Shown: positions 25,454 to 57,921, counted from the stretch's first letter. The stretch: 64,000 nt of DNA from a bacterium (GCA_030615605.1 JAUWYY010000005.1:43682-107681), one strand, 5' to 3'. Program-made: numbers and translations. The notes: generated by a model not told the origin, from the letters alone.

Positions 25454-25481
25454 ATAACTCGGCTTATAGATTCACTTTCCG
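25454..25481 (+). repeat. 28-bp motif ATAACTCGGCTTATAGATTCACTTTCCG (copy 1), ~135 nt upstream of integrase
   Basis: Second copy at 36328-36355 differs at one position (T to C). Both precede paralogous integrase genes in the same orientation. Confidence 0.7.
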
Positions 25482-36327: not shown

Positions 36328-36355
36328 ATAACTCGGCTTATAGACTCACTTTCCG
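36328..36355 (+). repeat. 28-bp motif ATAACTCGGCTTATAGACTCACTTTCCG (copy 2), ~170 nt upstream of integrase
   Basis: See copy 1 at 25454-25481. Confidence 0.7.
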
Positions 36356-36523: not shown

Positions 36524-37468
36524 GTGCAAAGCATTATAGACACACTTGCTCAGGAATTCCTGCTCTACCTGCAGGCCGAGAGGGGCTGCAGCCCCCTTAC
36601 CGCCACGTCTTACCGCTCCGATCTGACACAATTGTTCACACATTTGCAAGAAAGCTACGGGGTGGATGAGCCTGCGGAAATCACTGTGGAAATGGTCCGG
36701 TCGTGGATCGTTGCCATGTACGAACGCGGGCTGTGCAGCAACAGTGTGGCCCGTAGGGTCTGTTCGCTGAAGAGCTTCTGGAAGTATCTGTGCGAACGGG
36801 ATCTGGCTGCACCAGAGGTCGTAGCGAGAGTCAGCACGCCGCGACGGGAGAAGACGCTTCCGACTTATCTCAGCAAAGAGTCGTTGCAGAAGCTGCTAGA
36901 TGCAACTCTGCAACAACGCACTGAGTATTGCGCTTTCCGTGACTATGCGATAATGGCCACGTTCATCTACGCGGGCCTACGGCGGGGCGAGCTGCTCAAT
37001 CTTAAAATGGGCGATGTTGATCTAGGCGCTCGGACACTGCGTGTTGTGCGCGGAAAGGGGAACAAGACGCGTATTATTCCGCTGGTCGAGGAGCTGGAGG
37101 AGGCGATTGCTGATTGGCTAGAGTACCGCCGCACCAAGGGGCACGATTACCTGTTCACCACCAACCGGGGCAACCGCATCTACCCAAGCCGCCTGCAGAT
37201 CATCTGGAAGAACATCCTTAACCGGAGTGGCATCAACCGGTCCGGCGTGAGCATGCATACGTTGCGGCATTCTTTTGCGACGCTCCTGCTGCAAACTGGT
37301 AACGCTGATCTGGTCTCCATCCAGCATCTGCTTGGCCACAGCCGACTGGACACGACGGCCATCTATCTGCATGTCGATGCCCAGCAACTGCGTGAGGCAA
37401 TCACGGCGCATCCGCTGTCTAGCGCAAGCGGAGGCGCACAGCCAAGTCGCTCAGTACAGAGCTTATGA
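36524..37468 (+). CDS. Tyrosine recombinase / integrase (paralog of 25617-26510)
   Basis: LYLQAERGCS, RVVRGKGNKTRIIPL, HTLRHSFATLLLQTGNADLVSIQHLLGHSRLDTTAIYLHV. Collinear similarity to the 25617 integrase. Confidence 0.9.
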   Translation: MQSIIDTLAQEFLLYLQAERGCSPLTATSYRSDLTQLFTHLQESYGVDEPAEITVEMVRSWIVAMYERGLCSNSVARRVCSLKSFWKYLCERDLAAPEVVARVSTPRREKTLPTYLSKESLQKLLDATLQQRTEYCAFRDYAIMATFIYAGLRRGELLNLKMGDVDLGARTLRVVRGKGNKTRIIPLVEELEEAIADWLEYRRTKGHDYLFTTNRGNRIYPSRLQIIWKNILNRSGINRSGVSMHTLRHSFATLLLQTGNADLVSIQHLLGHSRLDTTAIYLHVDAQQLREAITAHPLSSASGGAQPSRSVQSL

Positions 37469-38159: not shown

Positions 38160-38262
38160 ACTTCGTCTTTGCCGCGTCTCCCATCCGGTACTTGATGTCG
38201 TAGTTGATGATGAAGTCCAGCTCCTCAATGGCGTGGTCGGTGGCGCTTATCTGCCGCTACGT
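38160..38262 (-). repeat. Degenerate copy (DR-A) of the 3' end of the type IIG R-M gene
   Basis: Directly after the TAG stop of the 467-aa ORF, in the same frame, it encodes RQISATDHAIEELD..., cf. QIAATDQAIDKL at the C-terminus of the 40921-44022 gene. About 36 nt of nucleotide similarity (TCAATGGCNTGGTCGGTGGCG). Confidence 0.5.
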
Positions 38263-39747: not shown

Positions 39748-39843
39748 TCATGTTTCCGCTGCTTGGACCATCGCGATCTCCTCGTCGGTCAGCTCGTACA
39801 GCTCATGGATTAGCTCATCAATGGCCTGGTCGGTGGCGGTTTA
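39748..39843 (-). repeat. Partial copy (DR-B, ~88% nt identity over ~70 nt) of the 3' end of the type IIG R-M gene
   Basis: Encodes TATDQAIDELIHELYELTDEEIAMVQAAET* immediately after a TAA, cf. ATDQAIDKLVYELYELSDEEIAIVEGQT*. Overlaps the last 8 codons of the FGE-domain gene in another frame. Confidence 0.6.
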
Positions 39844-40920: not shown

Positions 40921-43900
40921 CTACGTCTGTCCCTCCACTATCGCAATCTCCTCGTCGCTCAGCTCGTACAACTCATAGACCAGCTTATCAATGGCCTGGT
41001 CGGTGGCGGCTATCTGGCGCTGGAGGCGCTCGCGGCTGCGCGGCGTCTTGACCTGGGCCAGGCGCTTGTGCAGCTCCAGCATCGTCTCCACCAGCTCAAC
41101 CATCTTATCGTGCCGCGCCACATCCGCCGGGTCATCAAAATCAATCGTGCGGATGGGAAGGCGCTTAACGTATCGCGGCTCATATGCAAACCAACCGCCC
41201 TGAAACCGCGAGCTGATCTTCTGGAGATAGAAGGTAAGAACACGTGAATTAAGGACACCGAGAACGTACATTGTGAGCGCCTTGTCGGCGATGACGATCC
41301 CCATTCCACCACCAGCCCCCTGCGGGAAATAGAGCCCAGAGTCGTCGAGCGCGAACGCATTGGCTGGTGCGAGTGTCGGAGTTACGATTTTCGTAGATTC
41401 GAACATCATCATAGACGAACTGAAACTCAAGCCATACCAAGCAGGCCCCTTCATCTTGCCTTTTTCTCGTCGTTGGAGTTTGGATTGATTGTCACGGAGG
41501 CGCTGCCAAATCTCTGGCGCACTTGCCTTGACGGTCGCTTCCGGCAGTAAGGTAGTGGCACCACCCTCAAGTGCATACGGATAGATCAAGTGCCTAGCAC
41601 TAGGACCGACATAATAGCGTTTAAGGCTTTCAGCCTTAAGGTATTTCTTGAGACAGCTACTACCTTCTTCACGTGTGGCCATTATTCCAATTCCGTTCGG
41701 AATCTCTCCCGCCTCTAACACGAACACGTCATTGGCGCCTGTCTTAACACCCGTGATCATTTCCGAAGCGAGAGCAGGCAGTGGCTGGCCAATCTGATCC
41801 AGCTTCTGGCAGAGGTCTTGTTCGTCCCTATACCCGAGCGTCCATGGCCCAGTGCCCAATCGCCCGACGTCTATCTCCTCTATACGCCCGCCGCCGAGTA
41901 GTGTCTGCGGTGTCTCGTCTCTCGGATTGAACTGTGCTAGGAAAGAGTCTTGAGGAGAAGGCGTTGCAAATACGAGGCATGTGTATGATGTTGCGCCCTC
42001 GAAGACCTGTGCTGCTTGGAAGTCAACTATGCGCTGCAGGCCGCACTTTTTGGTCAAGAGTTGACGCAGACCCACACCATAATCAGCCTGTAGGAATTTA
42101 TTGGGGACGATGAAACCCATTTGGCCATTGGACCTGAGGACCTGCAGGGCTAATTCAATGAATGCAACGTAGATGTCAACCTTGCCAAATATAGCCGATC
42201 TGAAGTGCGTTTGAATGTAGCGAACCTCGGTTGGGTAGAAGTCGACAAGTCTGTGTATACGAATATACGGCGGATTACCGATGACGCAGTCGAAGCCGCC
42301 GGCGGACATTATCTCGGGGAACTCCGCGTCCCAGTCAAAGGCGTTGACGCGGCGGGCCTCCTCCTCGTCAATCAGTGCAAGCTGCCTCCCCTCATAATAG
42401 TCCGGCCCGATGAGACTGTTGCCACACTTGATATTATCGTCAATATTGGGCAGCACCCGCTCCTGGGCCAGTTGCAACTGCCCGCTGAGCGTCTCCTCGG
42501 TCTCCCCCTCCATACATTTGAGCAGCAGGTTGAGCTTGGTGACCTCCACGGCCTGCGAGTCAATATCCACACCAAAGATGTTGTTGAGCAGGATGCGCTT
42601 GCGCTCGAAGGTGGACAGCCGCCATTCGTTCTCGAGCACCTGGATAATGGCCGGCTGCGGGCCACGGGCATGCTTCCTGGGGCTATGGTTGGTGTAGTAG
42701 TCCAGGTGCCAGTTGAGCAGATACTGGTACGCACCCAGCAAAAATGAACCGGAGCCACAGGCCGGGTCGAGAATGCGCAGCTTGCTGGCCGCTTCCGGCG
42801 TCTCGGCCTCTTCCAGCGCCGGGCCGACGGTGTGCTCGACGATGTAGTCCACGATGTAGGTGGGTGTGTAGTAGACGCCACCGGCCTTCTTGACCTCGGG
42901 CTTCTCCTCGACTTTGGCGCGGTGGCTGGGGGTCAGGCGAATTACCTTGCCCAGGAACTGCTCGTAGACAGCCCCGAGGATATCGGCACCCAGCACGGAG
43001 AACTCATAGGGGCACTGCGGATAGTAAAGCTCGGCCAGAATAGACTGCAGAGCCTTGTCGGAGACCTCCAGTTCGGGCGTCAACTGATCCCCGCTGGAGC
43101 TGAAGTCAAACAGCCCGGCGTTATACTTGGTATCGGCCTGCTGGTAGAGCTGGCACAGACGCGGGTAGAGACCCGTGCCGTCCAGCAGGTCGCGCAGGCG
43201 ACCGTACGGCTCAACGCCCCGGTCTTCGGCAATGCGAAAGAACAGGATGCGGTCAATAGTGGTCTGGACGGCGAAGTTCAGGTCGTGCACGGACAGGTCA
43301 AGGTTGTGGCGGGCGATGTCTTTGGCCAGCATCTCCCGCCACTGCTCAATCTCCTGGAGGAACTCCGAGTCAACCTCGGTGGTGCCACGCTTGCGGCGTG
43401 TGCCTTCGGCATAGCGGTCAAAGGACCCCTTCAGTATCGCCTCTTTGGCGAAGATCGAGTAGATGTCGTCCAGGCGATCGACGTATTCATCATAGGTTAT
43501 GAAGTCAACCCGAGCCACGCTGGGCCCATCTGCCTCCTGAGGCCGCTTGCTGCAGTCGTAAACCGCGAATTCCTCAAAGTCAGTCAGGATGGACCGGGGC
43601 AGCTTCGCACTCCAGCCGTAACGGCGAAGCTGGTAGGCCGGCGAGGGATCGGTCTTTATGTGCACCGAGGGCTTCTTTGCTTCCAGGAAGAACTTGCGCT
43701 GGCCGCCGATGCGGAAGCAGTAATCCGGCGCTTTGGTGGCACCCCGGACCTTGATGGCGTCCTCGTGGATAACTTCCTTGTAGGGCTCGGCATAGCCCTG
43801 CTCGTTGGCAATATCCCAGCCCAGCGCCTCAAAGAAGGGGTCAATGAACTCCTGCCTCAGTTGCGCTTCACGGTACGAGACAGCAGCATACTGGTCAGCG

Positions 43901-44336: not shown

Positions 44337-45185
44337 CTACAGGTATTCCGCGACCTCCTGTGCCACATCAGCCTGCTCTGTGCTCTCGGAGGACACGGTC
44401 GTTTCCGCGAGCGGCCGCCGTACAGAAGGCACGGCAACGCCCGCCTGCAATGCCGTCATTACACCAACTGCCTCAAGATAGTTGTCTACAATAAACAGCT
44501 TTCCTGGCGCAAATGGGAAGGCTTCGAGATCGTTCCTCATGCGGTTGCGGTTTTCTCGCACGGCTACTACCGGTATGCCCTGCTCCAGAGCTGCAAGGGT
44601 TGGCAGTCCTACGCAACCGTCAGGAATCACCAGGCACGATACGTCAGCCGCAGTTAACACACCAGGGCGCTTCCAGACCGCCGCGCCTCGGACAATGCGC
44701 GGGCTCCGATGCAGCCCCTTCAGGACTGAGTAAAGGAAAGAAGTCGATATGACCTCGGCTGACATGCGGGGGTCAACTGCCCCAACATCCAGGTTCAGAA
44801 TCTCCATGGACTCTGCCATAGGGGCATGCGCAGATGGCATGTTGAAGATCATCGATATCGCATGAGTCAGCATCGCCTCAACACCGCCCCATGGATTGAC
44901 AATCTCGCCGCGGCTCTCGTAGTAGTCGTGATGAAAGCGCTCAGGCACATCAATTATCGAACCGAGGGCGATAGCATCGAATTCCGTCCGGCGGCGCGAG
45001 AGCACCTCACATAGCCGTTCGAGCCCTTCAACCCGTCCGACGGCTCTGCCAGACGACGAATACTCGCCCCACATGTGGATCGGTGGGTCCAGCTTAACAA
45101 CAACCGGACAGTCCAAGCCTAACGTGGCCCGTGCGCTGTGATAGCATCCAGCTTCTGCATCTCGTAGTAAGCCACCTGTCACCAA
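44337..45185 (-). CDS. Hypothetical protein
   Basis: 282-aa ORF, 15 nt downstream of the interrupted HD-ATPase gene. No assignable domain. Confidence 0.5.
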   Translation of the reverse strand: MVTGGLLRDAEAGCYHSARATLGLDCPVVVKLDPPIHMWGEYSSSGRAVGRVEGLERLCEVLSRRRTEFDAIALGSIIDVPERFHHDYYESRGEIVNPWGGVEAMLTHAISMIFNMPSAHAPMAESMEILNLDVGAVDPRMSAEVISTSFLYSVLKGLHRSPRIVRGAAVWKRPGVLTAADVSCLVIPDGCVGLPTLAALEQGIPVVAVRENRNRMRNDLEAFPFAPGKLFIVDNYLEAVGVMTALQAGVAVPSVRRPLAETTVSSESTEQADVAQEVAEYL

Positions 45186-45199
45186 CGAACGATGGTCAG

Positions 45200-47845
45200 T
45201 CAGCAGTCCTGGCGGCGCAACACGTACACAGGAGCCTCGACCTCCTCATTCGCTGCGGTGCCTATTGGCCGCTGTTCCCAAGGCGGCGGTTGTCGCTCAA
45301 TGCCGGAAGCTGCAACAAGGGTGGAAACAGGACACTGCCATGCGGCGGCAATGGCGGAGAGCACGATTCCTACAAGGGTGCGTGAGTGGTGGGTAACGGG
45401 ATCTCCCCGCATTTCGCGCGGCACCGGCCACAATGCAGGCGTTAGCTCCCACCCTATGCCGACAAGGTTAGCAACGTGCGTGTGTGTCGCCACAACATGA
45501 TCCTCGACGACAATATCATGCGCTTCTTCGCGTTTCTTGTTGAACACGCCGATAGCCATGATGAGCACCTCATCACTCCACTCAATGGTTGACAGCTCTG
45601 TTGCAGCGCGCGGTCGACCACCGACATATGCCACGGGGAGCGGGCCCGTATCACCACCCACTGCACGAACAGAAGCGGCAAGTTTCATCGCGTTCTCCGC
45701 TGCGAGCGTCGACCCCAAGAGCTGCGCCTGTTCGGTCGCCCATCGCGCGAGTTCCTCATCGTTGACGATGGGCCTGGCAGCCCCTCGGGATGCGGTGACG
45801 GGCATCCCGAACAGCACGCCAGCAACACCATCGAGCCGGGTGGCGTGGAGCCCTCCCACGACCACAGCCCCCGGACCCGGTCGGCCGCCTCTCGGTCCAC
45901 CCACGACGGCGACCGGGGGAATGAGCCATGCACGTCCGATCACGCGGCCAGACCGGTCATGCAGAGCACGGCAATTGCTCGCGAGTGCAAGCATCGTCTC
46001 CGCATTGTGGGTTGATTCCCAGTAAGGTGTAATCCTCTGTAGACGCGCGACAAGTTCGGTCGGGTTCATTTCCATCCAGTCGTTGACCCTGACTGGACAC
46101 CGCGTATCTCTCCCCTCATACTGCGTCTCAAGCGTCACGTCAAGGCATGGGTATGCAGCCTCGCAGAACTCGGCGAGCGGGTCCTCCCGAAATGCGATGT
46201 GCCCAATGAGGCCATCTTCGGCGCGTGGCGGCTGATCGAGCCAGACACGCACCACTGTACCCCCGTCTTCGAGCCTCTGGTCAGTGCTCGCTGGGCGAAC
46301 CACGGGTCGCCGCTGCAGGGAGTTGAACTCCAGTACGAGGGTGCTGTCCAGGCCCCTATCGCAGCGCCTCGTCGTAACGCGGACACGTTCGCCAAGCATG
46401 AAGACTGAGAAGAAGCCAATCCCGAAGCGACCGATCGGCCGAAAGCCGCTCGACAGCAGGCCCGGGGATTCGCGCTGCAGGAGAGGGCTGTCCCAGTAGC
46501 ATGTGCCAAAATCGAGGAGAGGCCCTGTGAGGACCTCCTAGGACATGCCCACACCATTGTCCTCGACCTCAAGCCAGTGGGTGTCCCCGTCGCTGCCGAT
46601 TCTGACACGAATGGTGCCCCAGCCATCACCGCGCTCTTCGAGGGCTCTGCGAGCACGCACGGCGTCTGCCGCATTCTGCACGAGTTCGCGCAGTGCCACG
46701 CTTGGATCGTCGCCATACAGAGCCCTGCCCCCCAACTTCTCGATCACCGCGAGTGGCTCGGATACCCCTACTCTCGCATCGACGGGCACCCATCCCACGA
46801 CAGGAACGAGTTGCGCGAGCCGGCGCGGGCTTTCGATACCGGCCACGCCGCGCACGGCAAATCGCTGCCGGCCCGTATCGGCGAGAAGCTGATCAACGCG
46901 ATGTAACTCGTCGTCAACCGTGACGAGTGTGTCGTGACACAGCCACCACGCATCTGCCAGATCCTCGCCGAACGGTGCTCCGGCAGTGAACATGAGGCGG
47001 TCGACGTGAAGGTACGGACGGTGAAGGTGCTCCTGGAACCGCCAGTGATCCCGAGAGAGCCCCTCCGGCTTTCGGAGCACTCTCAGGAGAACCGGAGCCC
47101 GGCTCGCGTCGATGTGAGCCGCGTCAGCAGCCCTCAAGAGGCACGCCACCTTCAGCGGGTCCATCTGCCACTGCCGAGGGAAGAGGCTTGGCGCCCCAAG
47201 GCCAGACCCGAACTCATGTTCGAGTTGCTCCACTGACCACCAGTGGCTGTGACCCAACCGGCCTATGGTGGGCCCGAGGTGCGAGCGGAGAGTGGAGTCC
47301 TCGAGCAAGAAGATCTGCTCACCTGTATCGGGATCATCCCAGTACATTGCAGGCAACTCCTCTGCCCTTAGAGCATGAAGTTCTCTAAGCGTGATTGCGT
47401 CCGCGCGCCGCTTGATGTCTTCAGGGGCGTTATCGATTTCCTCCTCACCTGGATATTGGCCCGTGTGCTCACGCAACTCCGCCACAACCGTGTCTCGCCA
47501 GATGGGATGCTGTCGCAACTGATCGGCGCCTCCGGGGTAGACGGCCAGGCTCAGTCCCAGATCATGGAGAAGGAAGGCCGCGCCCAAGACGAAGGCCTCG
47601 CACGGGGTCATTTTGTAGTCCTCGCCGGCGACCAGATCAGCGCTCTTCCAGAGCCCATCCAGGTGGCTGACGTCGTGCAACGTGTAGTCGGGAAGATCAC
47701 GGGCTATCTCGCCAGCAAGTAGCGCCGCCCTGGCCCGCATGCGCCGGAACGAGGTCCTGAGGCGCTCTCGCGGTTCCTCATGCTTGTCATCTGGTATTGA
47801 CGCGAGCGTGGCCCTCCATAGAGTGGTAGACTCATACTCAGGCAT
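45200..47845 (-). pseudogene. HD-domain + HSP90-like (GHKL/Bergerat) ATPase gene interrupted by one in-frame TAG at 46538-46540
   Basis: Upstream ORF ends ...ELVQNAADAV (N-box)...EVEDNGVGMS (G1 box) then TAG. The same frame continues EVLTGPLLDF...GRFGIGFFSVFMLGERV (G2 box, cf. HSP90 IGQFGVGFYSAF) into ORF 45200-46399. N-terminal region has HD motifs TLHDVSH...AAFLLHDLG. Confidence 0.7.
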
Positions 47846-49525: not shown

Positions 49526-49645
49526 CGCTCTCCCATTCGGTACGGTCAGACCGGCAATCGCTTCCGCTTCTTTCCGCTTAAGAGCCCCGCCCTACCCCAT
49601 GCTATGGGTCAGATCGAGTCCTAGCTTTTGCTCAGAGGCCCCCTG

Positions 49646-50359
49646 CTATACGTCCTTATCTGGCTGATTCGGTACGCCGCGCGCCTGGGCCACCATTGCA
49701 AGCATTTCGTTGGCCGCTGCCTCCATCTGGTCTAGTTTCAGGTCAGACTCTTCGGCGGTCGGCGCACTTTGTACCTTCTGGCGCAGGTCCTTGGGGTTGA
49801 CGTGTAAGTACACGCTGGTCGTGATGATATTCGAATGACCGAGAAGCTGCTGCACCTCCGCCAGCGAGAAGCCGCTGTCCAACAAGCTGCTTGCGTATGT
49901 GTGCCGGAGTGCGTGGGGCTTAATACGGTACTGCCTCTGCCCGCTTTCCTGCACTTCAAACTCCTGAATACCCGTCTCCTTAGCATACCTCTTCACCATT
50001 TGGTCAGGATATCGTGAGTTGATCTGTTTGCCTGGCTTCGCGCCGCTAATAGTTGTGAAGAAGTACCGGCTATGCTTTGGCCTCTTCTCATTCCATAGGT
50101 GCAGCCAGTCCATTGTGCTGCGGTGCAGGGGAATCACCCTCTCCCGGCCGCCTTTGCCATTATGGATTTCCACCTCGCCAGTATCCCATCGGATATCACC
50201 AGGCTTGAGGTTTATAATCTCCCCGACTCGCAGGCCACCATGCGCCATAAGTTCGAGTACGCACCTGTTTCGCAGGCCGGTTATCGTCCTCACATTCGGC
50301 TGATCAAGTAGTACTGTGAGTTCACTTTGGGTTAGAATCTGTGGCAGTTTCTTTGCCAT
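49646..50359 (-). CDS. Tyrosine recombinase, short form (catalytic domain only)
   Basis: HALRHTYASSLLDSGFSLAEVQQLLGHSNIITTSVYLHV. Only 237 aa; the N-terminal core-binding domain is largely absent. Confidence 0.85.
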   Translation of the reverse strand: MAKKLPQILTQSELTVLLDQPNVRTITGLRNRCVLELMAHGGLRVGEIINLKPGDIRWDTGEVEIHNGKGGRERVIPLHRSTMDWLHLWNEKRPKHSRYFFTTISGAKPGKQINSRYPDQMVKRYAKETGIQEFEVQESGQRQYRIKPHALRHTYASSLLDSGFSLAEVQQLLGHSNIITTSVYLHVNPKDLRQKVQSAPTAEESDLKLDQMEAAANEMLAMVAQARGVPNQPDKDV

Positions 50360-50555
50360 GATGACTCCTTTGGGTATAACTATTGTACTTCACTCTATGT
50401 ATTATATAGGATTGCTTAATCTATGTCAAATAGTTATTAGATATAGTGATTCGGTAGGTAGGCACAGGCCCAGACTGCACCTGTCCGGCAAGCGGGGGCC
50501 TATTGTCCGGCCACCTGCTCCTGCCCTGCCCCTGGGCCGCGCCCTGCCCTGGCCT

Positions 50556-51524
50556 TCACCTCCGTGCCACCTCCTGCTCGACCGCCGCTGTAATCCTGTG
50601 CCCGACTGCCGCAAGCACCTGCGCCTGTGACTGCACGGCCCGCAACTGATCGCCGGTTAGCTGACAAAGCTGCTCCACGTGCTCCATTGCCCAGGTGTCA
50701 AGCCGCCCGATAGCCTCAAGCCGCCGCTCAAACTCACTCTTCGCCCGCACAACCTCCTCACTCAACTGGTGGTCAGAGAATCCAAGTGAGGTCTGAACCG
50801 GCGTTTCACTGAGTCCATACCCGCCCTTGACCTTCTCAATTATGGTGATCACCGCTGCAACTGGCCGGTTTCGCGCAGCAGAGGTGGCTTCTTCTTGGGG
50901 ATTGCCCACAACCCAAGCTTCCGGCAGGTCATACTGGCAAGCTTCGCAACGTACTATGCCCTCCGCGTTGATCTTATGACAGCGCGGGCAACGCACTGGC
51001 GACAGGTTAGCGCAAGGCAGCTTGCTCAATTCCTGCAACGCTACTAACCCCACCTTCCCGTCAATGTATGCTTGCTTGAGTTTGTCGCCTGCGTTATCGG
51101 CGAGATCAATTCTCCCGTCAATGAATGCCACTGATCGGCCCGCCTTCTGCCCTACAGCCGCTGCGCTGAGACCGTGTTTCTCGATCAGCTCTGCGAAACC
51201 GGCCCCCTCCTCCCAAGGCCAAATATCCTCTCGGTTAAGATTGTCCAGGAGAACATATTCCCGCGCCGCCTGGTCGTCTAGGTCAACAACAATCGCAGGC
51301 AACTCGTGCAAGCCCGCCTTGATCGCGGCAAGCCGCCGCCGGTGACCGGCCAGTAACTCAAACGACCCGTTCGACCGTCTCACCGTGACTTGCCCAATGA
51401 ACCCCTGCGCCCGAATGCTATCGGCAAGCTGATCAATGCCTTCGGTGCCGAAATGCTGCCGAGGTTGATCCTCACGCGGCTTGATCTGCGCTATCGGAAT
51501 TGTCGTTATGCTCGTCATCATCAT
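50556..51524 (-). CDS. ParB/Spo0J-like N-terminal (ParB nuclease) domain protein with C-terminal Cys-rich zinc-ribbon region
   Basis: IPIAQIKPREDQPR...FELLAGHRRRLAA (GHRR box). CPRCHKINAEGIVRCEAC. Confidence 0.75.
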   Translation of the reverse strand: MMMTSITTIPIAQIKPREDQPRQHFGTEGIDQLADSIRAQGFIGQVTVRRSNGSFELLAGHRRRLAAIKAGLHELPAIVVDLDDQAAREYVLLDNLNREDIWPWEEGAGFAELIEKHGLSAAAVGQKAGRSVAFIDGRIDLADNAGDKLKQAYIDGKVGLVALQELSKLPCANLSPVRCPRCHKINAEGIVRCEACQYDLPEAWVVGNPQEEATSAARNRPVAAVITIIEKVKGGYGLSETPVQTSLGFSDHQLSEEVVRAKSEFERRLEAIGRLDTWAMEHVEQLCQLTGDQLRAVQSQAQVLAAVGHRITAAVEQEVARR

Positions 51525-52167
51525 TCTCCTCTTCTGCTACAGGGAATGCCTCTCGCGGCACCCAACTTTTCTTAAACACCTTTGGCAGTCCGCATTCCTT
51601 CTGAGAATACACAAACTGCTGCCCGTCAATCTCTCGGGTTCGCGGCTGCCCTTCGGCGTCAAGCACTGGCACCCAGGGCCGCCCAGGATAGTAAACACGC
51701 CGGACATAATGCCAATACCCACCCCACCATATAAGCACGGCTAATAAGCTTGCTATCGGTGCAGAGTTAGGTGCGCTAAACACTAACCCGATCCACACTG
51801 CCGGCCCGATTATGAATTGACCAACACCCCACGCTAACCCGAAGAATACAACACAACACCCAGCCATTGTTGACCAGAAACTCGCAGGTTCCTGTGGTAG
51901 AATCTCCACGGCCTCCTCGTCAACCGCCTCGCTGTCGTTGTCGTTTGCTGTCGTTGTATTCTCTGAGGCCGTTCGTGGCTCTGGCTCTACCTCCACGCCT
52001 AGGGCCTCCTGCTGCACCGCCGCCTCCCCGCTGCCCGTCAACCTGTCCGGTGGCACCCAGGACTCGTTACCGAATTCGTCCACGGCAAGCACCCTCTCCT
52101 CCTGCCCGCCAGCAACCTCCTGCATCCGACTGACCGTTTGACCTTCTCTGCGTATAGGTATAAGCAT
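51472..52167 (-). CDS. Hypothetical membrane protein (two TM helices, acidic C-terminal tail)
   Basis: ORF overlaps the parB-like start. Hydrophobic core CCVVFFGLAWGVGQFIIGPAVWIGLVF. Confidence 0.4.
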   Translation of the reverse strand: MLIPIRREGQTVSRMQEVAGGQEERVLAVDEFGNESWVPPDRLTGSGEAAVQQEALGVEVEPEPRTASENTTTANDNDSEAVDEEAVEILPQEPASFWSTMAGCCVVFFGLAWGVGQFIIGPAVWIGLVFSAPNSAPIASLLAVLIWWGGYWHYVRRVYYPGRPWVPVLDAEGQPRTREIDGQQFVYSQKECGLPKVFKKSWVPREAFPVAEEENDDDEHNDNSDSADQAA

Positions 52168-53134
52168 TACAACTCACCTCCTCTTTACAAGCCCAGAATG
52201 ACCTTGATTAGCCGCGCCACCACCCCGCCGCCAAACAATTCTTTACTGAAGATTCGCCCAAGCTTCCTGTGTACTGCGCGTCGAAGAATTTTTCTCGGGG
52301 CCTTCGGATCTAGCATGAATAATTCTGCCCAGGGTTGCACGTTCCCCTGCCATCGGGCAAGCCGATAACAACCCTGCCGAACTCGTTTCCAACTCCTCAG
52401 TCTCACTGTCCTCGGCATTTTGACCACCTCCTCCTGCTCAGTTTATATTGATGAACACTATTATTATACTCTTTCTAGGCACGTTTGTCAAGTGTTTTAG
52501 CTTGTATTTCAATTCTTTTTTTTGGACCTGCCCTCTTCGCCACCTCAGAAACGCCCCTCTAAGCCCCTGCCCTCCTACCATTCACTTCTCCCGTGTCCAC
52601 CCCCGCCGTCGCCCCTGCTCGCCCTGCTTGCCCTGCTCTACCCCCCTACAATCTGCATTGTGGTATTCTCACCGGCACCACCACCCTCCCCTCCTATATT
52701 GAAGATAAAGAGAGAACGGTAGCGGAGTGCAACTGAAAACACACTTGCCGGGGGCTTGCGAGCCCCTAGGGATCTACTGGAGGGGGCAGCCAGCCCAGGT
52801 CCAGCCAGCGGCCAAATCACCGCCGGCAACAGCGCGGCAATGGCGCCGGAGCCATCTACTTTGCGAGTATCGTTCCTATTATACATTAAGCGACTGATAT
52901 ACGCCTTCTTAACTACATCTTCTGTATAGAATATGTAGTATATCCTGTTTTGCCTGTCTGTACGATAATTAGAATATATGTCCAAAACCCGCACGCTCGG
53001 GGTCAGCCGAAATTGAGATTGCCAGAGCAACGGGGGCTGCACGAGAAGTTGCGGGGCGTTGCGAGTTGTGTATGTTATATTGGGCGATTTGGGTGATACA
53101 TTCGTGATGTTTTGTTACAAATTTGATGTGAAAA

Positions 53135-53230
53135 GGGGGTAAAATGGCTGGCCGTGGGGGTAAAACTGGCGTCTGTGGGGCCGAAAATGGCTAGACGGGA
53201 GGGCGAGAGGGGGTAAAATGGCTAGACGGA
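53135..53230 (+). repeat. Iteron-like array: four ~22-bp direct repeats, consensus GGGGGTAAAATGGCTRGNCG
   Basis: Copies start near 53135, 53157, 53178 and 53209. Immediately flanked by an AT-rich, gene-free stretch (52400-53100). Candidate replication origin. Confidence 0.5.
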
Positions 53231-53235
53231 GGCTA

Positions 53236-53733
53236 CTAGAAGCCCGAATACTTGCTCTGGTGGATTCGTGATGTGGCGAGACAGCCTAAGATTTTATCGT
53301 GTTCTTCCTCGCGTTCGCGGTCTGCCTGGCGGCTGTCGCGGACTTTGGCGCGGATCTGCTCGACGTCGGCGCGCTGTTCGTCAGACCAATCGGCTTCGGC
53401 AATGTCCCACCAATCAAGCTCCTCGGAGTCCGGGTTCCCAGTATCTACCGCACCGACCGCGGATACCAGCCAAATACGGATGATATGCCTGCGTCGGAGG
53501 GTGCCCTCTCGCCCGCGCTCGAAGTCAATGCCGGCGGCAAGGAGTTCTGGCGTCCAGTTCCGAAGGTAGCGGATAAGCCAGGAGGCATTTGCAGGCCAAC
53601 CTTTTTGAGCGACGTCAATCTCATTCTCTTCGGCACACTGAGTCAACTCCTCAAAGAGCATCTCAGCAGTCCCCAGCCACTGCTCGCCCGGTTCCGAGAA
53701 CAGGAAATCACGAATGGCTTCAACCAGGATCAT
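53236..53733 (-). CDS. Hypothetical acidic protein (replication-module associated)
   Basis: 165-aa ORF with 4-nt overlap to the upstream HTH ORF. No assignable domain. Confidence 0.45.
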   Translation of the reverse strand: MILVEAIRDFLFSEPGEQWLGTAEMLFEELTQCAEENEIDVAQKGWPANASWLIRYLRNWTPELLAAGIDFERGREGTLRRRHIIRIWLVSAVGAVDTGNPDSEELDWWDIAEADWSDEQRADVEQIRAKVRDSRQADREREEEHDKILGCLATSRIHQSKYSGF

Positions 53734-53960
53734 AACAACACCTCCAAAGAATTAAACGACAGCACTACAACGTCAACGGCGTACAGTGGCGGCTCCCAGT
53801 CCGGCTCTTGGTAGAGAGCGAGGGGTTTATCGGATTTCGGAAAACTTTCCAATTTCCGACGTTCCTTCAAGTTCTCCGTGATTGTATCCTTGTGAACCCC
53901 CACCTCGTCGGCTATCTGCTGCTGGCTATAGCACGTCAACGCCGTCACCGCCTTCGTCAA
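53730..53960 (-). CDS. Small HTH DNA-binding protein
   Basis: QQQIADEVGVHKDTITENL helix-turn-helix-like segment. Confidence 0.45.
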   Translation of the reverse strand: MTKAVTALTCYSQQQIADEVGVHKDTITENLKERRKLESFPKSDKPLALYQEPDWEPPLYAVDVVVLSFNSLEVLL

Positions 53961-54189
53961 AATGAAGCTCTCTCACGGCGTCATCATCGCCTCCTTCCTT
54001 TGCCGTGGTCGTCGTGCTGTTCTATGTTTTCTGGTTGTCGTTTCTCTGCTTTGCTCACTGACGGTTATCCAAAGCAAGTCCGAGAGCAGTTTGGCCTTGA
54101 GTCTGCTAGGCAGGCTAAACTCGTGGCCTCGACCATTCGCTCGTTGAGTCGACTCAACGAGTTAACCTTAGGTCTCTGCAAAGGCGGCT

Positions 54190-54332
54190 TTCCTGTGTAA
54201 AATTCCTGTGTAACCCCCTTAAGGATATTACACAGGTTACACAGAGAGGACATTGCTCCATGTTTGGGGGCTTTGAGACCCCCCAAAACGTTGGTAGCTC
54301 GTCCTTTGTCCTGCTGTGTAATTACACAGCAT
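54190..54332. promoter_or_regulatory. Cluster of TGTGTAA / TTACACA half-sites forming palindromes (e.g. CTGTGTAATTACACAG)
   Basis: CCTGTGTAA x2, TTACACAG x4 within 140 bp, between the repA-like helicase 3' end and the HTH gene. Likely an operator array. Confidence 0.5.
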
Positions 54333-54340
54333 TACACAGG

Positions 54341-55501
54341 CTATTGACTCTGATCCATTAGCCGGATTTCAAATCGCTGTCTCGGCTGCCTATCCGTGGG
54401 CCTAACTGAGACAATCCCTGCTGCTGTCAATTTGTCAATATGATTGAATACGGTTTTACTCGTGACGTTGGCTGCTGCCTCTACCGCAACCTTCACTTCA
54501 TTTGACCAATGCCACTCGCCGCCCTTGAGTTCGCTAGTTATTGCGCTGTCCGTGGCGTCGAGTTGGACTGGCTCCAGCCCGTGTTCCACCTCGCCTATGC
54601 GCTCGAACCGCAAACTGCCATCGGTGAAGATCATTCGCGTGTTGAACCGAACTGGCGACCCCATGCGGTTTTTGTCCTGCATAATTTGCAAAATACCCGA
54701 ATTGTCTGATCGCCGGATTTGACATACCACATCCACGCCGCCCATAAGTGCCGACGCGCCCCTTGCAGTCTGTTGGGCGGTGCCTGAGGTACTCTTCGCG
54801 ACATGATGAATAACGATCACTGAGGCCCCAGTCGCCTCGGATACTTGCCGCAACCGCCCTGCTGCTGCACCCATCTGCGAATTGCTGTTCTCGTCGGTGT
54901 CGCCGAGGAAGTCTGATAGTGAGTCCAAGATGATGAGGCGGGCCTCTGCGTCTATTGCCAAACCACTTAGCTCCTGCACAAACTTGTCGGCGTCTAGGTC
55001 AAACTCCATATCCGTTACTATGGTGATCGGCAAGTTGGCCTTGGCTGCCAGCTTCTTGAATCGTTCCCTCAAGCGGACTGGGCGGTTTTCCTTATCCACT
55101 AACAACACGCCACCCTGGTGGACGGCGAGGCCTTGCCAAGGCTTGTCACCGGCCAGCGTAACGGCGAGCTCAAGTAGCAAATAGCTTTTGCCCACCCCCT
55201 CTTTACCTGCTAGTACAACCACGCTCTCTCCAGGCACGAACCCCTGCACGACATCCGGGGGCACGGGCCGCTTGTCTGCCAGCAGGTCGGCAAGGGTGAA
55301 GATATTTCGCTGCCGCCAGGCCTGCTTTCGCGCATGGTGCAGAATATCTTCGTAGCTGTGTCCGCCGAGGGTGGCCCAAGTCAAGCAAAATTGTTCGGCT
55401 GCTTGCTTCTCTGGGCTTGCGACAAGAAGCTCTGCGAGGTCTACTACTAGTTCCTCAAATGTCGGGCTTTTTGTGTCTAAGACGAAACTGTCCTTTTTCA
55501 T
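54341..55501 (-). CDS. RecA-fold AAA_25 ATPase, RepA-like replicative helicase with C-terminal winged-helix
   Basis: Walker A VVVLAGKEGVGKSYLLLELA. Walker B ARLIILDSLSDF. IVIHHVAKS. C-terminal KTVFNHIDKLTAAGIVSV HTH. Confidence 0.75.
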   Translation of the reverse strand: MKKDSFVLDTKSPTFEELVVDLAELLVASPEKQAAEQFCLTWATLGGHSYEDILHHARKQAWRQRNIFTLADLLADKRPVPPDVVQGFVPGESVVVLAGKEGVGKSYLLLELAVTLAGDKPWQGLAVHQGGVLLVDKENRPVRLRERFKKLAAKANLPITIVTDMEFDLDADKFVQELSGLAIDAEARLIILDSLSDFLGDTDENSNSQMGAAAGRLRQVSEATGASVIVIHHVAKSTSGTAQQTARGASALMGGVDVVCQIRRSDNSGILQIMQDKNRMGSPVRFNTRMIFTDGSLRFERIGEVEHGLEPVQLDATDSAITSELKGGEWHWSNEVKVAVEAAANVTSKTVFNHIDKLTAAGIVSVRPTDRQPRQRFEIRLMDQSQ

Positions 55502-56003
55502 TTCTACGCCTCCTGACTAAAGTTTGCGGCAACGGGCGGTCTTTAGGCCCGAGGCTTGGGCAGTGGTAAAGCCACACCGCCCGCTGCCGCTGGGATGAGG
55601 GGCCTCCTGATCAAAGATGCCCCGGCTGACTGTGCTTTACAAGGTTCAATGTGCCGCTGGCCTCGTGCGGGCTATGCAGACCGTAAGGACACCGAGGGCA
55701 CCAGCGAGCCCCCGTCGCGAGAGGGCTGATGTCTAGCATTGGCTGAGGTTCGGCGGTCATTGCCAAACCGGCATGCTGCAACTGGCCGACATGGGCCACG
55801 CCGCCCAGACTATTTGTGAACCCGGCGGCCCTGCCCGACTGACTGACCTTTGCCGCAGCAGGCCCCCCAGGCTGGTAAGCGTCTTCGGAAAGGATGGCAT
55901 AGGCTGGCACTCTGACTATCAAGAATTGCCGGCTCTATCGAGCTCTGTGTGTCTTCAGCGGGGTTGGCGCTTGCCGGCAGCAATGTGCCCCGGGAACTAC
56001 TAC

Positions 56004-56032
56004 TTGACAAACTAGTGATAGTACTCTATACT
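56004..56032 (+). promoter_or_regulatory. Consensus sigma70 promoter TTGACA-17-TATACT with overlapping inverted repeats (operator)
   Basis: TTGACA 56004-56009, 17-nt spacer, TATACT 56027-56032. AGGAGG RBS and ATG at 56070. TTGACA/TGTCAA and AGTAC/GTACT inverted pairs flank it. Confidence 0.5.
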
Positions 56033-56069
56033 TTGTACTCGTAGATGTCAAGCTACTACTTATAGGAGG

Positions 56070-56354
56070 ATGATGACTGTGACAAAGAGCAGCACGAACG
56101 AGGCACCGCTGCGCAGGATTCGGCGGGAGCTGGATCTGAGCCAAACGGACCTGGCGACCCTCTGCCAGATCAGCTCGCACAGCGTTACGCTTGCTGAGCA
56201 AGGCGGCACGCAGCGCCTACCCGGCAAGATTCTCGGCGTCCTCGCGGATCTGGGCTACGACCCGGATGCCCTCGCTGCAGAGCACGAGAAGTTCATGGCA
56301 GACCGCCGAGAGCAACTGCTCAAGCAGGTGAAGGCAAGGCGTCGCAACGGATAA
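56070..56354 (+). CDS. XRE-family HTH transcriptional regulator
   Basis: IRRELDLSQTDLATLCQISSHSVTLAEQG helix-turn-helix. Confidence 0.7.
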   Translation: MMTVTKSSTNEAPLRRIRRELDLSQTDLATLCQISSHSVTLAEQGGTQRLPGKILGVLADLGYDPDALAAEHEKFMADRREQLLKQVKARRRNG

Positions 56355-56650
56355 GGATCAAGCGAGCTCAGAACGCTGCTAAGTAGTTGACACAAGACCG
56401 GCCCGCGCGAACCTGGCGAGGCAGACGCGGGCCGAATAGCAGACCCGTGGGGCACCATCAAGACCAAGGCGGTTATGACGCTGTCCACGAGCTATCTGAT
56501 GAGTATACCGAAACCAGGTCCCAAGTGCAAGGCTCGACGACGTATGGAAGTGGCGATTCGTTATGAATCTGATTCAATGTATGCGAGGTCGGCCGTGAGA
56601 AAGGCAGACACGGAGAGCAGATTTGGTGCAAGCGGTTGTAAGCTCGCGGA

Positions 56651-56925: not shown

Positions 56926-57921
56926 ATGAGAAGCACTGTAGCTGAACATCAAAGCGAGACAACAACAATAAGCCCCGGCTGCCAGCCGGGAGCAGCCGTT
57001 GTCGCTGACAATGAGCAGGGAATCTACGACTTCCAGTACTTGGTGGATTCTTTTCTGACCTATCTTGGCCAGTACCGCCAAGCTTCTCCGCTTACCCTAC
57101 AAGCCTACGGCCGGGATCTGAGGCGGCTGCATGGCTTCCTGATGTCTCATGGCCTAACGACGGATGCCCACAAGATCAGCAGCCGCCACCTCCAAGCCTT
57201 TGCCATCTCGATGAGTGGACTATCCGCAGCCACGATCACGCGGGCACTGAATGCCACCAGCTCGTTCTTCAGTTATCTAATGAGGAGCGGACTGGTAGAC
57301 TCCAATCCGGTGGCCGGCGTGATCAAGCCTAAGCAGAAGTCGAGTCTGCCCCAGGGGCCGACAATTCAGCAATGCCATCGGTTGGTCCAGGCCACTTGCG
57401 ATATTCGCGACCGAGCCATGATCATGATGCTTTTGACCGCCGGCGTGCGACGCTCCGAGCTGCTGAATTCGCGAACCAGCGATTTGACAGCCGATCTCAG
57501 TCGCATTCGCATTACTGGCAAAGGCGGCAAGGAACGGGTAATCCCCCTGCCGGGACAGACCCGGCGAATACTCAAGCAATACCTGGATGAGCGAGAGTCA
57601 ACATCAGAGCTTCTCTTCCCTAACACGTGCGCTAAGCGCATGGGCAACTCGACGTTCTATCGAATCTTCAAGCGCATTGTGAAGAAAGCCGGGCTTGACC
57701 AAGCAGGCATCACGGCCCATAGTCTGCGTCACGCCTATGCCACAATGCTGCTGCACTCGGCAGTGGATGTGAAGACAGTCCAGGAGCTGCTGGGCCATGC
57801 TGACCTGAGCACCACTTCCCGCTACCTGCACTCGGATGGCGCCACCAAGCAGGCTGCCGCTGAGGCTTTGCCTGAGTTTCTGGATGTGAGCGACGAAGGG
57901 GAAGAAACCAACGAGTCCTAG
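56926..57921 (+). CDS. Tyrosine recombinase / integrase
   Basis: FLTYLGQYRQASPLTLQAYGRDL N-terminal domain. HSLRHAYATMLLHSAVDVKTVQELLGHADLSTTSRYLH catalytic domain. Confidence 0.9.
   Translation: MRSTVAEHQSETTTISPGCQPGAAVVADNEQGIYDFQYLVDSFLTYLGQYRQASPLTLQAYGRDLRRLHGFLMSHGLTTDAHKISSRHLQAFAISMSGLSAATITRALNATSSFFSYLMRSGLVDSNPVAGVIKPKQKSSLPQGPTIQQCHRLVQATCDIRDRAMIMMLLTAGVRRSELLNSRTSDLTADLSRIRITGKGGKERVIPLPGQTRRILKQYLDERESTSELLFPNTCAKRMGNSTFYRIFKRIVKKAGLDQAGITAHSLRHAYATMLLHSAVDVKTVQELLGHADLSTTSRYLHSDGATKQAAAEALPEFLDVSDEGEETNES

Follow-up and report, generated by a model that had tools for sequence, protein, structure and literature searches.

An AAA_25 helicase gene with a downstream octamer array and a separable orf165-repeat cassette in the probable replication region of a small mobile element

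Introduction

In satellite phage P4, the alpha protein acts with ori/crr, and its origin-binding domain is that of structure 1ka8. The IncQ plasmid RSF1010 has a RepA helicase, a RepC initiator and a RepB' primase, and its oriV comprises 3.5 iterons of 20 bp, an AT-rich segment and the ssiA/ssiB hairpins. The Rep protein of Staphylococcus aureus pathogenicity islands (SaPIs) carries a C-terminal winged-helix domain, and 6-12 short iterons lie directly downstream of rep in two sets of opposite orientation (PMC9371898). In plasmid pRN1 a stem-loop origin is found 3' of the rep gene, and similar arrangements have been noted in bacteriophages (PMC4234260). Here we describe a locus within 64,000 nt of bacterial DNA (GCA_030615605.1 JAUWYY010000005.1:43682-107681; this whole stretch is termed the window, and positions are counted from its first letter) in which a RepA/DnaB-like helicase gene is directly followed by an array of octamers and a winged-helix gene of the same operon, orf165, is directly followed by ~21-nt direct repeats.

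A first-pass annotation of the window had read this locus as a plasmid-type replication origin belonging to a near-complete integrated plasmid, phage-plasmid or integrative and conjugative element. We find that the locus is very probably a replication region and that, judged by comparison with related loci, it would split into two separable protein-DNA cassettes, the helicase with its octamers (cassette A) and orf165 with its 21-nt repeats (cassette B). The best explanation for the DNA between 49.6 and 57.9 kb is the core of a small (~8 kb) mobile element, with recombinase genes at both sides, that lies inside a larger replicon.

Results

The helicase and its C-terminal winged helix

The protein encoded directly upstream of the octamers matched the AAA_25 family (PF13481) with an E-value of 1.7e-35 (122.9 bits, cutoff 27), and no match to the superfamily 3 (SF3) type domains D5_N, DUF5906 or Pox_D5 was found in it. 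The open reading frame (ORF) was intact, the Walker A and B motifs were present and every invariant family residue was kept, with G99, K105, D136, E138, N139, D193 and S194 invariant across 22 relatives. In an AlphaFold2 (AF2) model (pLDDT 88), a short N-terminal helical region precedes the RecA-fold AAA_25 core (residues ~69-310), which is followed by a C-terminal winged helix (~316-381) modelled as helices 316-324, 333-344 and 348-360 and strands 364-368 and 377-381 (pLDDT ~90-96). This winged helix was kept across the helicase subfamily, with a W-HWSNE...T motif.

Among proteins of solved structure, RepA of RSF1010 was nearest in sequence to the core: the family profile matched 1g8y at 2.4e-17, and RepA was ~30% identical to the helicase by tblastn. 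By Foldseek, RepA (1nlf/1olo) had the top target-normalised TM-score among the matches listed (0.68-0.69); when ranked by E-value, RAD51-family chains came first, and DnaB and Twinkle were also matched. Relatives were abundant, with 37,073 representatives at E <= 1e-3, 5,384 at E <= 1e-10 and 22 at E <= 1e-30. The closer ones had the AAA_25 core fused to DnaB_N, Prim-Pol, PriCT or Toprim/zinc-ribbon domains and were, by PHROG annotations and phage matches, primase-helicases of mobile elements and phages. Relatives in known plasmids and phages were only 25-32% identical, and a search with the family alignment found none in species-representative genomes. The replicative helicase of RecA fold named in the first-pass annotation was thus borne out: these sequence relationships support a RepA/DnaB-type replicative helicase, for which hexamer formation and unwinding are predicted.

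An array of octamers in opposed sets 3' of the helicase gene

Two nucleotides past the helicase stop codon began the first of seven exact copies of the octamer CTGTGTAA, all contained in 147 nt (54193-54339; strands + + - - then + - -). On the helicase strand the order was CTGTGTAA, CTGTGTAA, TTACACAG, a 69-nt hairpin spacer, and then CTGTGTAA, CTGTGTAA, TTACACAG, TTACACAG. Elsewhere in the 64 kb a single copy of CTGTGTAA was present; the expectation for the whole window was 1.4, and eight copies occurred in 0 of 100 shuffles. The hairpin core of the spacer, read on the minus strand from 54291 to 54266, was TTTTGGGGGG-TCTCAAAG-CCCCCAAA. Folded as single-stranded DNA it reached -16.1 kcal/mol (z = -4.85), and none of 200 shuffles was as good.

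The octamers had been described as a palindromic operator array separating the helicase gene from a small helix-turn-helix (HTH) gene. The repeats themselves are exact, as given above, and their setting is not that of a promoter-type gap between the two genes: they abut the helicase stop codon and end ~230 nt short of the small HTH ORF. No sigma-70-like promoter was detected on either strand of 53960-54340, and the array as an operator was rejected on this ground. A perfect 22-bp palindrome on the far side of the octamers (54140-54161) could be an operator or a hairpin.

Arrays of this kind proved to be a trait of the helicase family. At loci L002 (helicase 56% identical to that of the window; CCTAGGTAA-type repeats), L004 (44%; CTGTGCAA) and L012 (26%; GTCCCAAA), the DNA past the helicase stop codon followed the same plan of two short-repeat sets, in both orientations, around a G-run hairpin, with a motif that was its own at each locus. 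We surveyed 74 non-identical loci, which are not phylogenetically independent and of which 58 had both flanks available. The 250 nt 3' of the helicase gene ranked within the top 5% of their own locus for 8-mer repetition at 37 of the 74, and among the 58, arrays were detected in 26 of the 3' flanks, none of the 5' flanks and one distal control (Wilcoxon p ~3e-7). Some 20 distinct, unrelated motifs were represented among the 3' arrays, with sites in both orientations and typically in two clusters 65-90 bp apart. Since arrays lie directly 3' of the gene across the helicase family, the array in the window makes more sense as an origin or loading site that belongs to the helicase.

Exchange of the helicase cassette between related elements

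Only three related elements with an orf165 homologue (L253, L254/L255 and L259/L260; gene orders in Table 1) were found in ~15 billion proteins and contig collections. In L254/L255, the DNA from the XRE gene to the orf165 homologue contained no AAA_25 helicase, no octamer and no counterpart of the small HTH ORF; the SF3 helicase of this element (TIGR01613, 205 bits) had a dense GTAACC/GGTTAC array directly 3' of its gene. L253 likewise had no helicase, octamers or small HTH ORF, and a 253-aa protein of unknown family filled the slot. This protein (L253 1058-1819) had a CxxWxCxxC motif and no Pfam match; it is possibly a replication initiator that has escaped recognition. Nucleotide homology to L253 is lost in the window near 55640 and returns near 53680, so the helicase, the octamers and the small HTH ORF form one exchangeable unit. 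Thus, the orf165-repeat cassette was constant while two unrelated helicase folds each brought their own adjacent array. The simplest account would have each helicase act with its array as an autonomous replication module, and orf165 and its repeats fulfil some other conserved function.

orf165 and the 21-nt direct repeats

The four direct repeats of ~22 bp reported by the first-pass annotation are real. Copies of ~21 nt at 53135-53155, 53156-53176, 53178-53198 and 53209-53229, spaced by 21, 22 and 31 nt and 71-100% identical to the reference copy, began 7 nt past the orf165 stop codon (Tandem Repeats Finder score 63). The full unit, at <=3 mismatches, was found three times at the array, nowhere else in the window and in 0 of 100 shuffles. 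An exact iteron 15-mer gave only single matches per locus in genomes and viral contigs, with ~1,000 chance matches expected in 596 Gb.

Absence of the repeat array from homologous elements would have told against the first-pass reading, but the array was present in all three, directly 3' of every orf165 homologue found. The arrays of L253, L254/L255 and L259 held 4-7 copies of the unit CGTA(C/T)AG(G/C)CA(AAA/TTT)..CCCC, spaced by 20-22, 31-32, 43, 53 and 74-75 nt, that is, by multiples of ~10.6. The unit in the window, CCGTCTAGCCATTTTACCCCC, was a diverged version of the repeat of its relatives; the L254-type repeat was CGTACAGGCAAAA.

The orf165 protein was modelled with a single winged helix, formed by its N-terminal domain (residues 1-90), which a disordered, acidic linker connects to a long helix at the C-terminus. 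The protein had no match in Pfam, PHROG or NCBIfam, including the Rep families Rep_3 and RepC. Its winged-helix region differed along with the repeats between the window and L254, and orf165 is the likely binder of the 21-nt repeats. ParB was considered for this role and set aside because it is 91% identical between the window and L254 though the repeats differ.

Upstream of orf165, and overlapping its start by 4 nt (ATGA), lay the ORF that had been annotated as a small HTH gene (here HTH76). An HTH-like motif was recognised in it by eye; the family assignment found no match in Pfam, PHROG or NCBIfam, and no homologue was found, beside related helicases or elsewhere. At 53961-54000 on the minus strand, a strong ribosome-binding site (AAGGAGG) and ATGATG stand in frame with HTH76, and a TGA intervenes after four codons. 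This interrupted start could reflect a pseudogene, a recoding event or chance.

Low-stability DNA and other non-coding features beside the repeats

The DNA beyond the repeats had been described as a 700-bp AT-rich, ORF-free gap. This was correct for a T8 run (52513-52520) and for three AT-rich patches: a GC content of 35-40% was confined to 52400-52550, 52850-53000 and 53060-53134. The remainder did not fit the description, with a GC content of 64-72% at 52550-52850, a promoter, and overlap with the small gene orf77 at the lower end. In the patch that adjoins the repeats, the GC content was 35% overall (53060-53134) and 32% at 53085-53134, 53096-53135 was within the 0.3% least stable 40-mers of the window, and the block ATCACGAATGTATCACCCAAA within it was kept in L254, L253 and L259. 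The DnaA box TTWTNCACA was absent from 52430-53240 and from the equivalent regions of L254 and L253; in L259 a single match occurred near the downstream promoter.

Farther along, a palindrome at 52912-52939 (ACTACATCTTCT GTAT AGAATATGTAGT) with 12-nt arms and a 4-nt centre was among the least stable DNA of the window and was conserved, its L254 counterpart lying at 2025-2055. Its geometry resembles that of a tyrosine-recombinase core site or a ParB-type site. Over ~170 nt (52530-52700) the minus strand was conserved and rich in G runs, the plus-strand GC skew fell to -0.62, and the equivalent stretches of L254 and L259 were G-rich as well; this DNA has the potential to form an R-loop or G-quadruplex. 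No Rfam family was detected at its gathering score in the whole window, nor at E <= 1 in 52100-54400.

Table 1. Features of the putative element in the window, and gene order of the related elements.
Feature	Position	Strand	Basis or remarks
237-aa tyrosine recombinase	49646-50359	-
Downstream operon	49646-52418	-	Pfam, NCBIfam; synteny with L254, L259
ParB_N/HTH protein	50556-51524	-	TIGR00180, 96.7 bits, cutoff 58.45
231-aa membrane protein	51472-52167	-
orf77	52185-52418	-	small conserved gene; overlaps lower end of non-coding stretch
Consensus sigma-70 promoter, TTGACA-17 nt-TATAAT, 12/12	52463-52491 (read 52491-52463)	-	kept in L254, L259
Conserved non-coding DNA with palindrome, GC-rich block and G-rich run	52492-53059	.	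aligns to L254 1840-2560
Low-stability AT-rich segment adjoining the repeats	53060-53134	.	conserved block ATCACGAATGTATCACCCAAA
Four phased direct repeats, ~21 nt	53135-53229	.	minus-strand unit CCGTCTAGCCATTTTACCCCC
orf165, 165 aa	53236-53733	-	co-transcribed with helicase
HTH76, small HTH-like ORF, 69-76 aa	53730-53960	-	motif QQQIADEVGVHKDTITENL seen by eye
Perfect 22-bp palindrome	54140-54161	.	halves CTCGTTGAGTC and GACTCAACGAG, 100% complementary; between octamers and HTH76
Octamer set 2	54193-54244	.	four CTGTGTAA sites, two per orientation
Central spacer with G-run hairpin	54247-54305	.
Octamer set 1	54314-54339	.	three CTGTGTAA sites (two direct, one inverted on helicase strand)
RepA/DnaB-like replicative helicase, 386 aa	54341-55501	-	Pfam AAA_25
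orf103	55611-55922	-	51% identical to L253 counterpart
Symmetric divergent promoter region	55996-56059	.	with orf103 spans 55611-56059
XRE-type repressor	56070-56354	+	77% identical to L253, 44% to L254
orf59	56387-56566	+
CHC2 primase zinc-finger stub, 74 aa	56651-56875	+	ends 50 nt before integrase gene
XerC/D-like integrase	56926-57921	+
L253			XRE gene, orf103, 253-aa protein, 88-aa and 93-aa proteins, orf165 homologue, repeat array
L254/L255			XRE gene, orf165 homologue, repeat array, ParB operon; P4-family SF3 helicase on other side of XRE
L259/L260			100-aa protein, orf165 homologue, repeat array, ParB operon

Flanking operons of the element

The helicase operon appears under the control of a divergent switch. 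One promoter, P(+) (56004-56032, 11/12), serves the XRE gene, and the other, P(-) (56051-56023, 10/12), serves the operon of orf103, helicase, HTH and orf165. An inverted repeat (CTACTACTTGACA / TGTCAAGCTACTAC) in this region contains the -35 boxes of both promoters, a compact switch geometry. In L255, the corresponding side of the XRE gene carries a short ORF and then a 469-aa P4-family SF3 helicase; a primase or helicase on the integrase side of XRE appears to have been lost in the window. The integrase was 39% identical to the L002 integrase, which adjoins a Prim-Pol and the helicase.

The consensus promoter at the lower end drives an operon of orf77, the membrane protein, ParB and a tyrosine recombinase, of which the ParB had been noted in the first pass and is confirmed here. 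Nucleotide identity of the operon with L254 was 77%, and ParB was 91% identical to that of L254 and 78% to that of L259. The recombinase was of a short form that aligned to XerD 97-285, without the N-terminal SAM-like core-binding domain, and this form was kept in L254 and L259. No ORF between 48.4 and 57.9 kb matched a ParA/CbiA-type ATPase. In L257 and L258, orf77, the membrane protein and ParB (64-79% identical to those of the window) also occurred together, there without orf165 and within longer, phage-like runs of small genes; thus, the trio is itself a mobile module.

Ends of the element and its surroundings

Homology to L254 stops ~50 nt past the stop codon of the 237-aa recombinase, near 49595. 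No direct repeat of at least 11 nt joining the regions outside both recombinase genes was found, and no att repeats were found in the merged L255/L254 element; a 10-mer (CGAGTCCTAG) at 49615 and 57912, outside the recombinase genes, is compatible with chance. Contig L001 of Logan ends at 53063 and 57060; these positions were weighed as possible junctions and, as no repeat or other feature accounts for them, were taken to be assembly breaks.

The larger claim of the first-pass annotation, a near-complete integrated plasmid, phage-plasmid or integrative and conjugative element, found no support. No relaxase, coupling protein or type IV secretion system gene was present among the ORFs scanned at 29-63 kb, where the sole FtsK/HerA-like ATPase (32948-34711) pairs with a SIR2 protein as in defence-type pairs. 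Capsid, tail, portal and terminase genes had no Pfam or PHROGs match in the ORFs scanned (some small ORFs were outside the scan), and the module ORFs had no match to the Rep_3, RepC or RepB families in Pfam or NCBIfam. The 4-kb region had no nucleotide match in plasmids, orf165 and the 231-aa membrane protein had none in 72,556 plasmids, and the membrane protein had none in 50,697 phages. With no ParA found and the primase reduced to a 74-aa stub, the core fits better as part of an uncharacterised mobile-element family: an integrative element of small size that may depend on a helper or be partly decayed.

Polysaccharide biosynthesis genes fill the first 25 kb of the window, and defence-type genes, restriction genes and another integrase occupy 25-48 kb, so the module is embedded in a larger replicon beside other islands. 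One block of ~10.9 kb (25.4-36.4 kb) is flanked by a 28-bp direct repeat (25454-25481 / 36328-36355, 96% identical) and has an unusually strong positive GC skew (0.2-0.34). It carries a SIR2_2 and HerA/DUF87 pair and a Dam-like methyltransferase and is adjoined by the gene of a XerC/D-like integrase (36524-37468); its appearance is that of a separately integrated defence island bounded by att-like ends. Farther along, a 73-nt repeat (39767-39839 / 40937-41009, 89%) and a 45-nt repeat (38214-38258 / 40977-41021, 84%) mark the 5' ends of three consecutive minus-strand genes, for an unknown 467-aa protein, an FGE-sulfatase-like protein and an Eco57I/MmeI-type IIG restriction-modification enzyme, which suggests a common leader or regulatory element. 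A DUF3326 ORF (44337-45185, minus strand) matched profile positions 98-336 only, its N-terminus being truncated, and an insertion may have disrupted the gene. The presence of this gene hints at a cyanobacterium as the source. It adjoins a 399-aa ORF and an HD-CE/HATPase_c protein (46538-47845), and these two resemble a conflict-system pair.

Discussion

Of the two repeat arrays, we regard the one adjoining the helicase as the likelier origin, a view that we hold at about even odds. From the sequence features, the protein folds and their positional conservation across relatives we infer the following course. The XRE-controlled leftward promoter would express a RepA/DnaB-type hexameric helicase, the C-terminal winged helix of which would recognise the CTGTGTAA octamers. 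Helicase assemblies on both opposed sets (3 + 4) would distort or extrude the 69-bp hairpin spacer and load themselves, and this self-loading would make the array the origin at which the element replicates, by the logic of SaPI Rep/ori and P4 alpha/ori-crr but with a RecA-fold motor. With only a stub of a primase of its own, the element would depend on its host or on a helper for priming. orf165, for its part, would bind the four helically phased repeats beside easily melted DNA and would constitute a second, conserved iteron-type site, separate from the helicase cassette. Cassette B would most likely be a second, initiator-style origin or a copy-control site, with a partition site or recombination-accessory site as alternatives. 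For the first-pass annotation, this means that the replication module is upheld as a mobile-element replication region with a helicase and a conserved phased array by easily melted DNA, and is corrected in that the 21-nt repeats travel with orf165 and not with the helicase.

Several observations weigh against placing the origin at the octamers. The spacer (54245-54313) has a GC content of 54%, holds a GC hairpin and is not AT-rich, so that it is less clear how this DNA would melt, and a weak terminator is another reading of the hairpin. No 3' array was seen at about half of the homologous loci, and at P0006, a 42% homologue, the downstream gene overlaps and no array is present; the layout is thus not universal, and the loci that do show it are, as stated, not independent. 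The covariation of orf165 with its repeats is based on two specificity classes only, and the element is perhaps a decaying remnant, given the truncated primase and the in-frame TGA at HTH76. Finally, phased 21-22-nt iterons and low-stability AT-rich DNA, by which origins are classically recognised, sit with cassette B and not with cassette A, and therefore the true origin could be the 21-nt iterons, with the helicase recruited there.

An origin of this IncQ/lambda type is a serious competitor, though the less probable arrangement. The orf165 protein would be the initiator that melts the AT-rich DNA at the 21-nt repeats, the helicase would be recruited as RepA is by RepC at the RSF1010 oriV, and the CTGTGTAA array would be left as an operator, a terminator or an ssi-like priming hairpin. 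Such a scheme would accommodate the phased 21-22-nt direct repeats and the adjacent DNA of 32% GC, within the 0.3% least stable, together with a winged-helix gene that is attached to the repeats and varies along with them; it would also suit the single operon for helicase and orf165, the closeness of the helicase to IncQ RepA among solved structures, and the retention of the repeat array in all relatives found. It is difficult to reconcile with the persistence of orf165 and the repeats beside an unrelated SF3 helicase or without an AAA_25 helicase, since one small protein would need to recruit two unrelated motors, both of which have a C-terminal winged helix and 3' arrays of their own. In addition, orf165 is a single winged helix without a match to Rep_3, RepC or any other Rep family, no DnaA boxes were found in the non-coding region of the window, and no promoter that would make an operator of the octamer region was detected.

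It is also conceivable, although improbable, that orf165 and its repeats are a maintenance or recombination site and that the helicase cassette does all of the replication. The repeats could be centromere-like, with a winged-helix binder in the style of TubR/ParR that works with the ParB operon or a hijacked motor. However, no ParA, ParM or TubZ motor is present in the element, the 91% identity of ParB despite differing repeats excludes it as the binder, and a centromere has no need of a conserved AT-rich block adjoining its repeats. Alternatively, they could be an accessory array, with phased binding similar to that of Xis/Cox, for a tyrosine recombinase acting at the palindrome 52912-52939. 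By contrast to this expectation, orf165 is bigger than typical Xis proteins, and for neither the palindrome nor the element ends was an att-like second copy found. Least of all do we favor the view that the cassettes are mere relics of a once-mobile element, neutral DNA in an island of defence and mobile genes, which is very unlikely because, despite the 74-aa primase zinc-finger stub, the in-frame TGA before HTH76, truncated neighbors such as DUF3326 and the lack of att repeats, the helicase ORF is intact with all invariant residues, the seven octamers are exact, the promoters are at or near consensus and the non-coding blocks are conserved across four elements.

If the octamers next to the helicase are its origin, a broader proposal can be put forward tentatively, as one that we consider rather less likely than the origin assignment itself. 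AAA_25 helicases with a C-terminal winged helix may form a large, undescribed class of self-loading initiator-helicases, with an origin of opposed octamer sets and a G-run hairpin directly 3' of the gene. Such a class would be convergent with the SF3 Rep/ori systems of SaPI and P4, and in this uncultured lineage its members would be swapped as cassettes into a new family of ~8-kb integrative elements that always keeps an independent orf165-iteron cassette of new function. Were helicase-adjacent arrays origins, sequence alone would suffice to predict where replication starts in thousands of AAA_25-bearing replicons of phages, satellites and islands, and a plan of initiator-helicase, winged helix and 3' iterons would have arisen on two unrelated motor folds. 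The related elements offer a natural comparison, in which one backbone carries interchangeable AAA_25, P4-type SF3 or unknown 253-aa cassettes and a constant orf165-repeat cassette, so that it is directly testable how the two cis sites share the work. Compact helicase modules of this type are also candidate shuttle-vector replicons for poorly tractable bacteria.

Among described systems, plasmids of the IncQ type are similar in that their RepA is the solved structure closest to the helicase core and in that, as with the iterons of their oriV, the four ~21-bp repeats of the window lie beside an AT-rich stretch (GC 32%); a stable hairpin ~1 kb away may be comparable to their ssi hairpins. The window nevertheless has no homologue of RepC or RepB', only the 74-aa CHC2 stub; its helicase is extended at the N-terminus and bears an additional C-terminal winged helix; and its repeats go with orf165 instead of the helicase, in a module that is chromosomally embedded and linked to recombinases. 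Iteron-bearing theta plasmids (Rep_3/RepE/pi/RepA-WH1-WH2) likewise have phased direct repeats (17-22 bp) beside unstable AT-rich DNA, an arrangement seen also with the 21-nt repeats of the window, but orf165 has a single winged helix where their initiators have two, and no DnaA boxes were found beside its repeats. The pRN1 type (the prim-pol/helicase/winged-helix protein ORF904) is similar in that a structured element lies directly downstream of the replication-protein gene; it differs as an archaeal plasmid with an SF3 helicase and a 100-nt stem-loop origin, whereas the window has two short-repeat sets. Compared to P4, the helicase of the window is not of SF3 type and has no primase domain, and the second cis site, the 21-nt repeats, is of other sequence and apparently has another binder, orf165.

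The closest parallel is with SaPIs and related phage-inducible chromosomal islands (PICIs). As in those islands, the helicase of the window has a C-terminal winged helix, and seven short repeats, starting 2 nt past its stop codon, fall into opposed sets of 3 and 4 on either side of a spacer, with sites of both orientations in each set; the SaPI plan has at least two per side. The setting is similar as well: a small integrase-bearing island with a divergent repressor switch, in which the module is exchangeable between islands. The motor in the window is a RecA-fold AAA_25 (superfamily 4-type) and that of SaPIs an SF3 AAA+; octamers take the place of penta- and hexamers, a spacer of 54% GC with a G-run hairpin takes that of the AT-rich SaPI centre, and no packaging or interference genes or helper phage are evident in the window. 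Thus, the finding extends known principles, with the initiator-helicase/iteron design on a different motor fold, and does not add a new kind of system.

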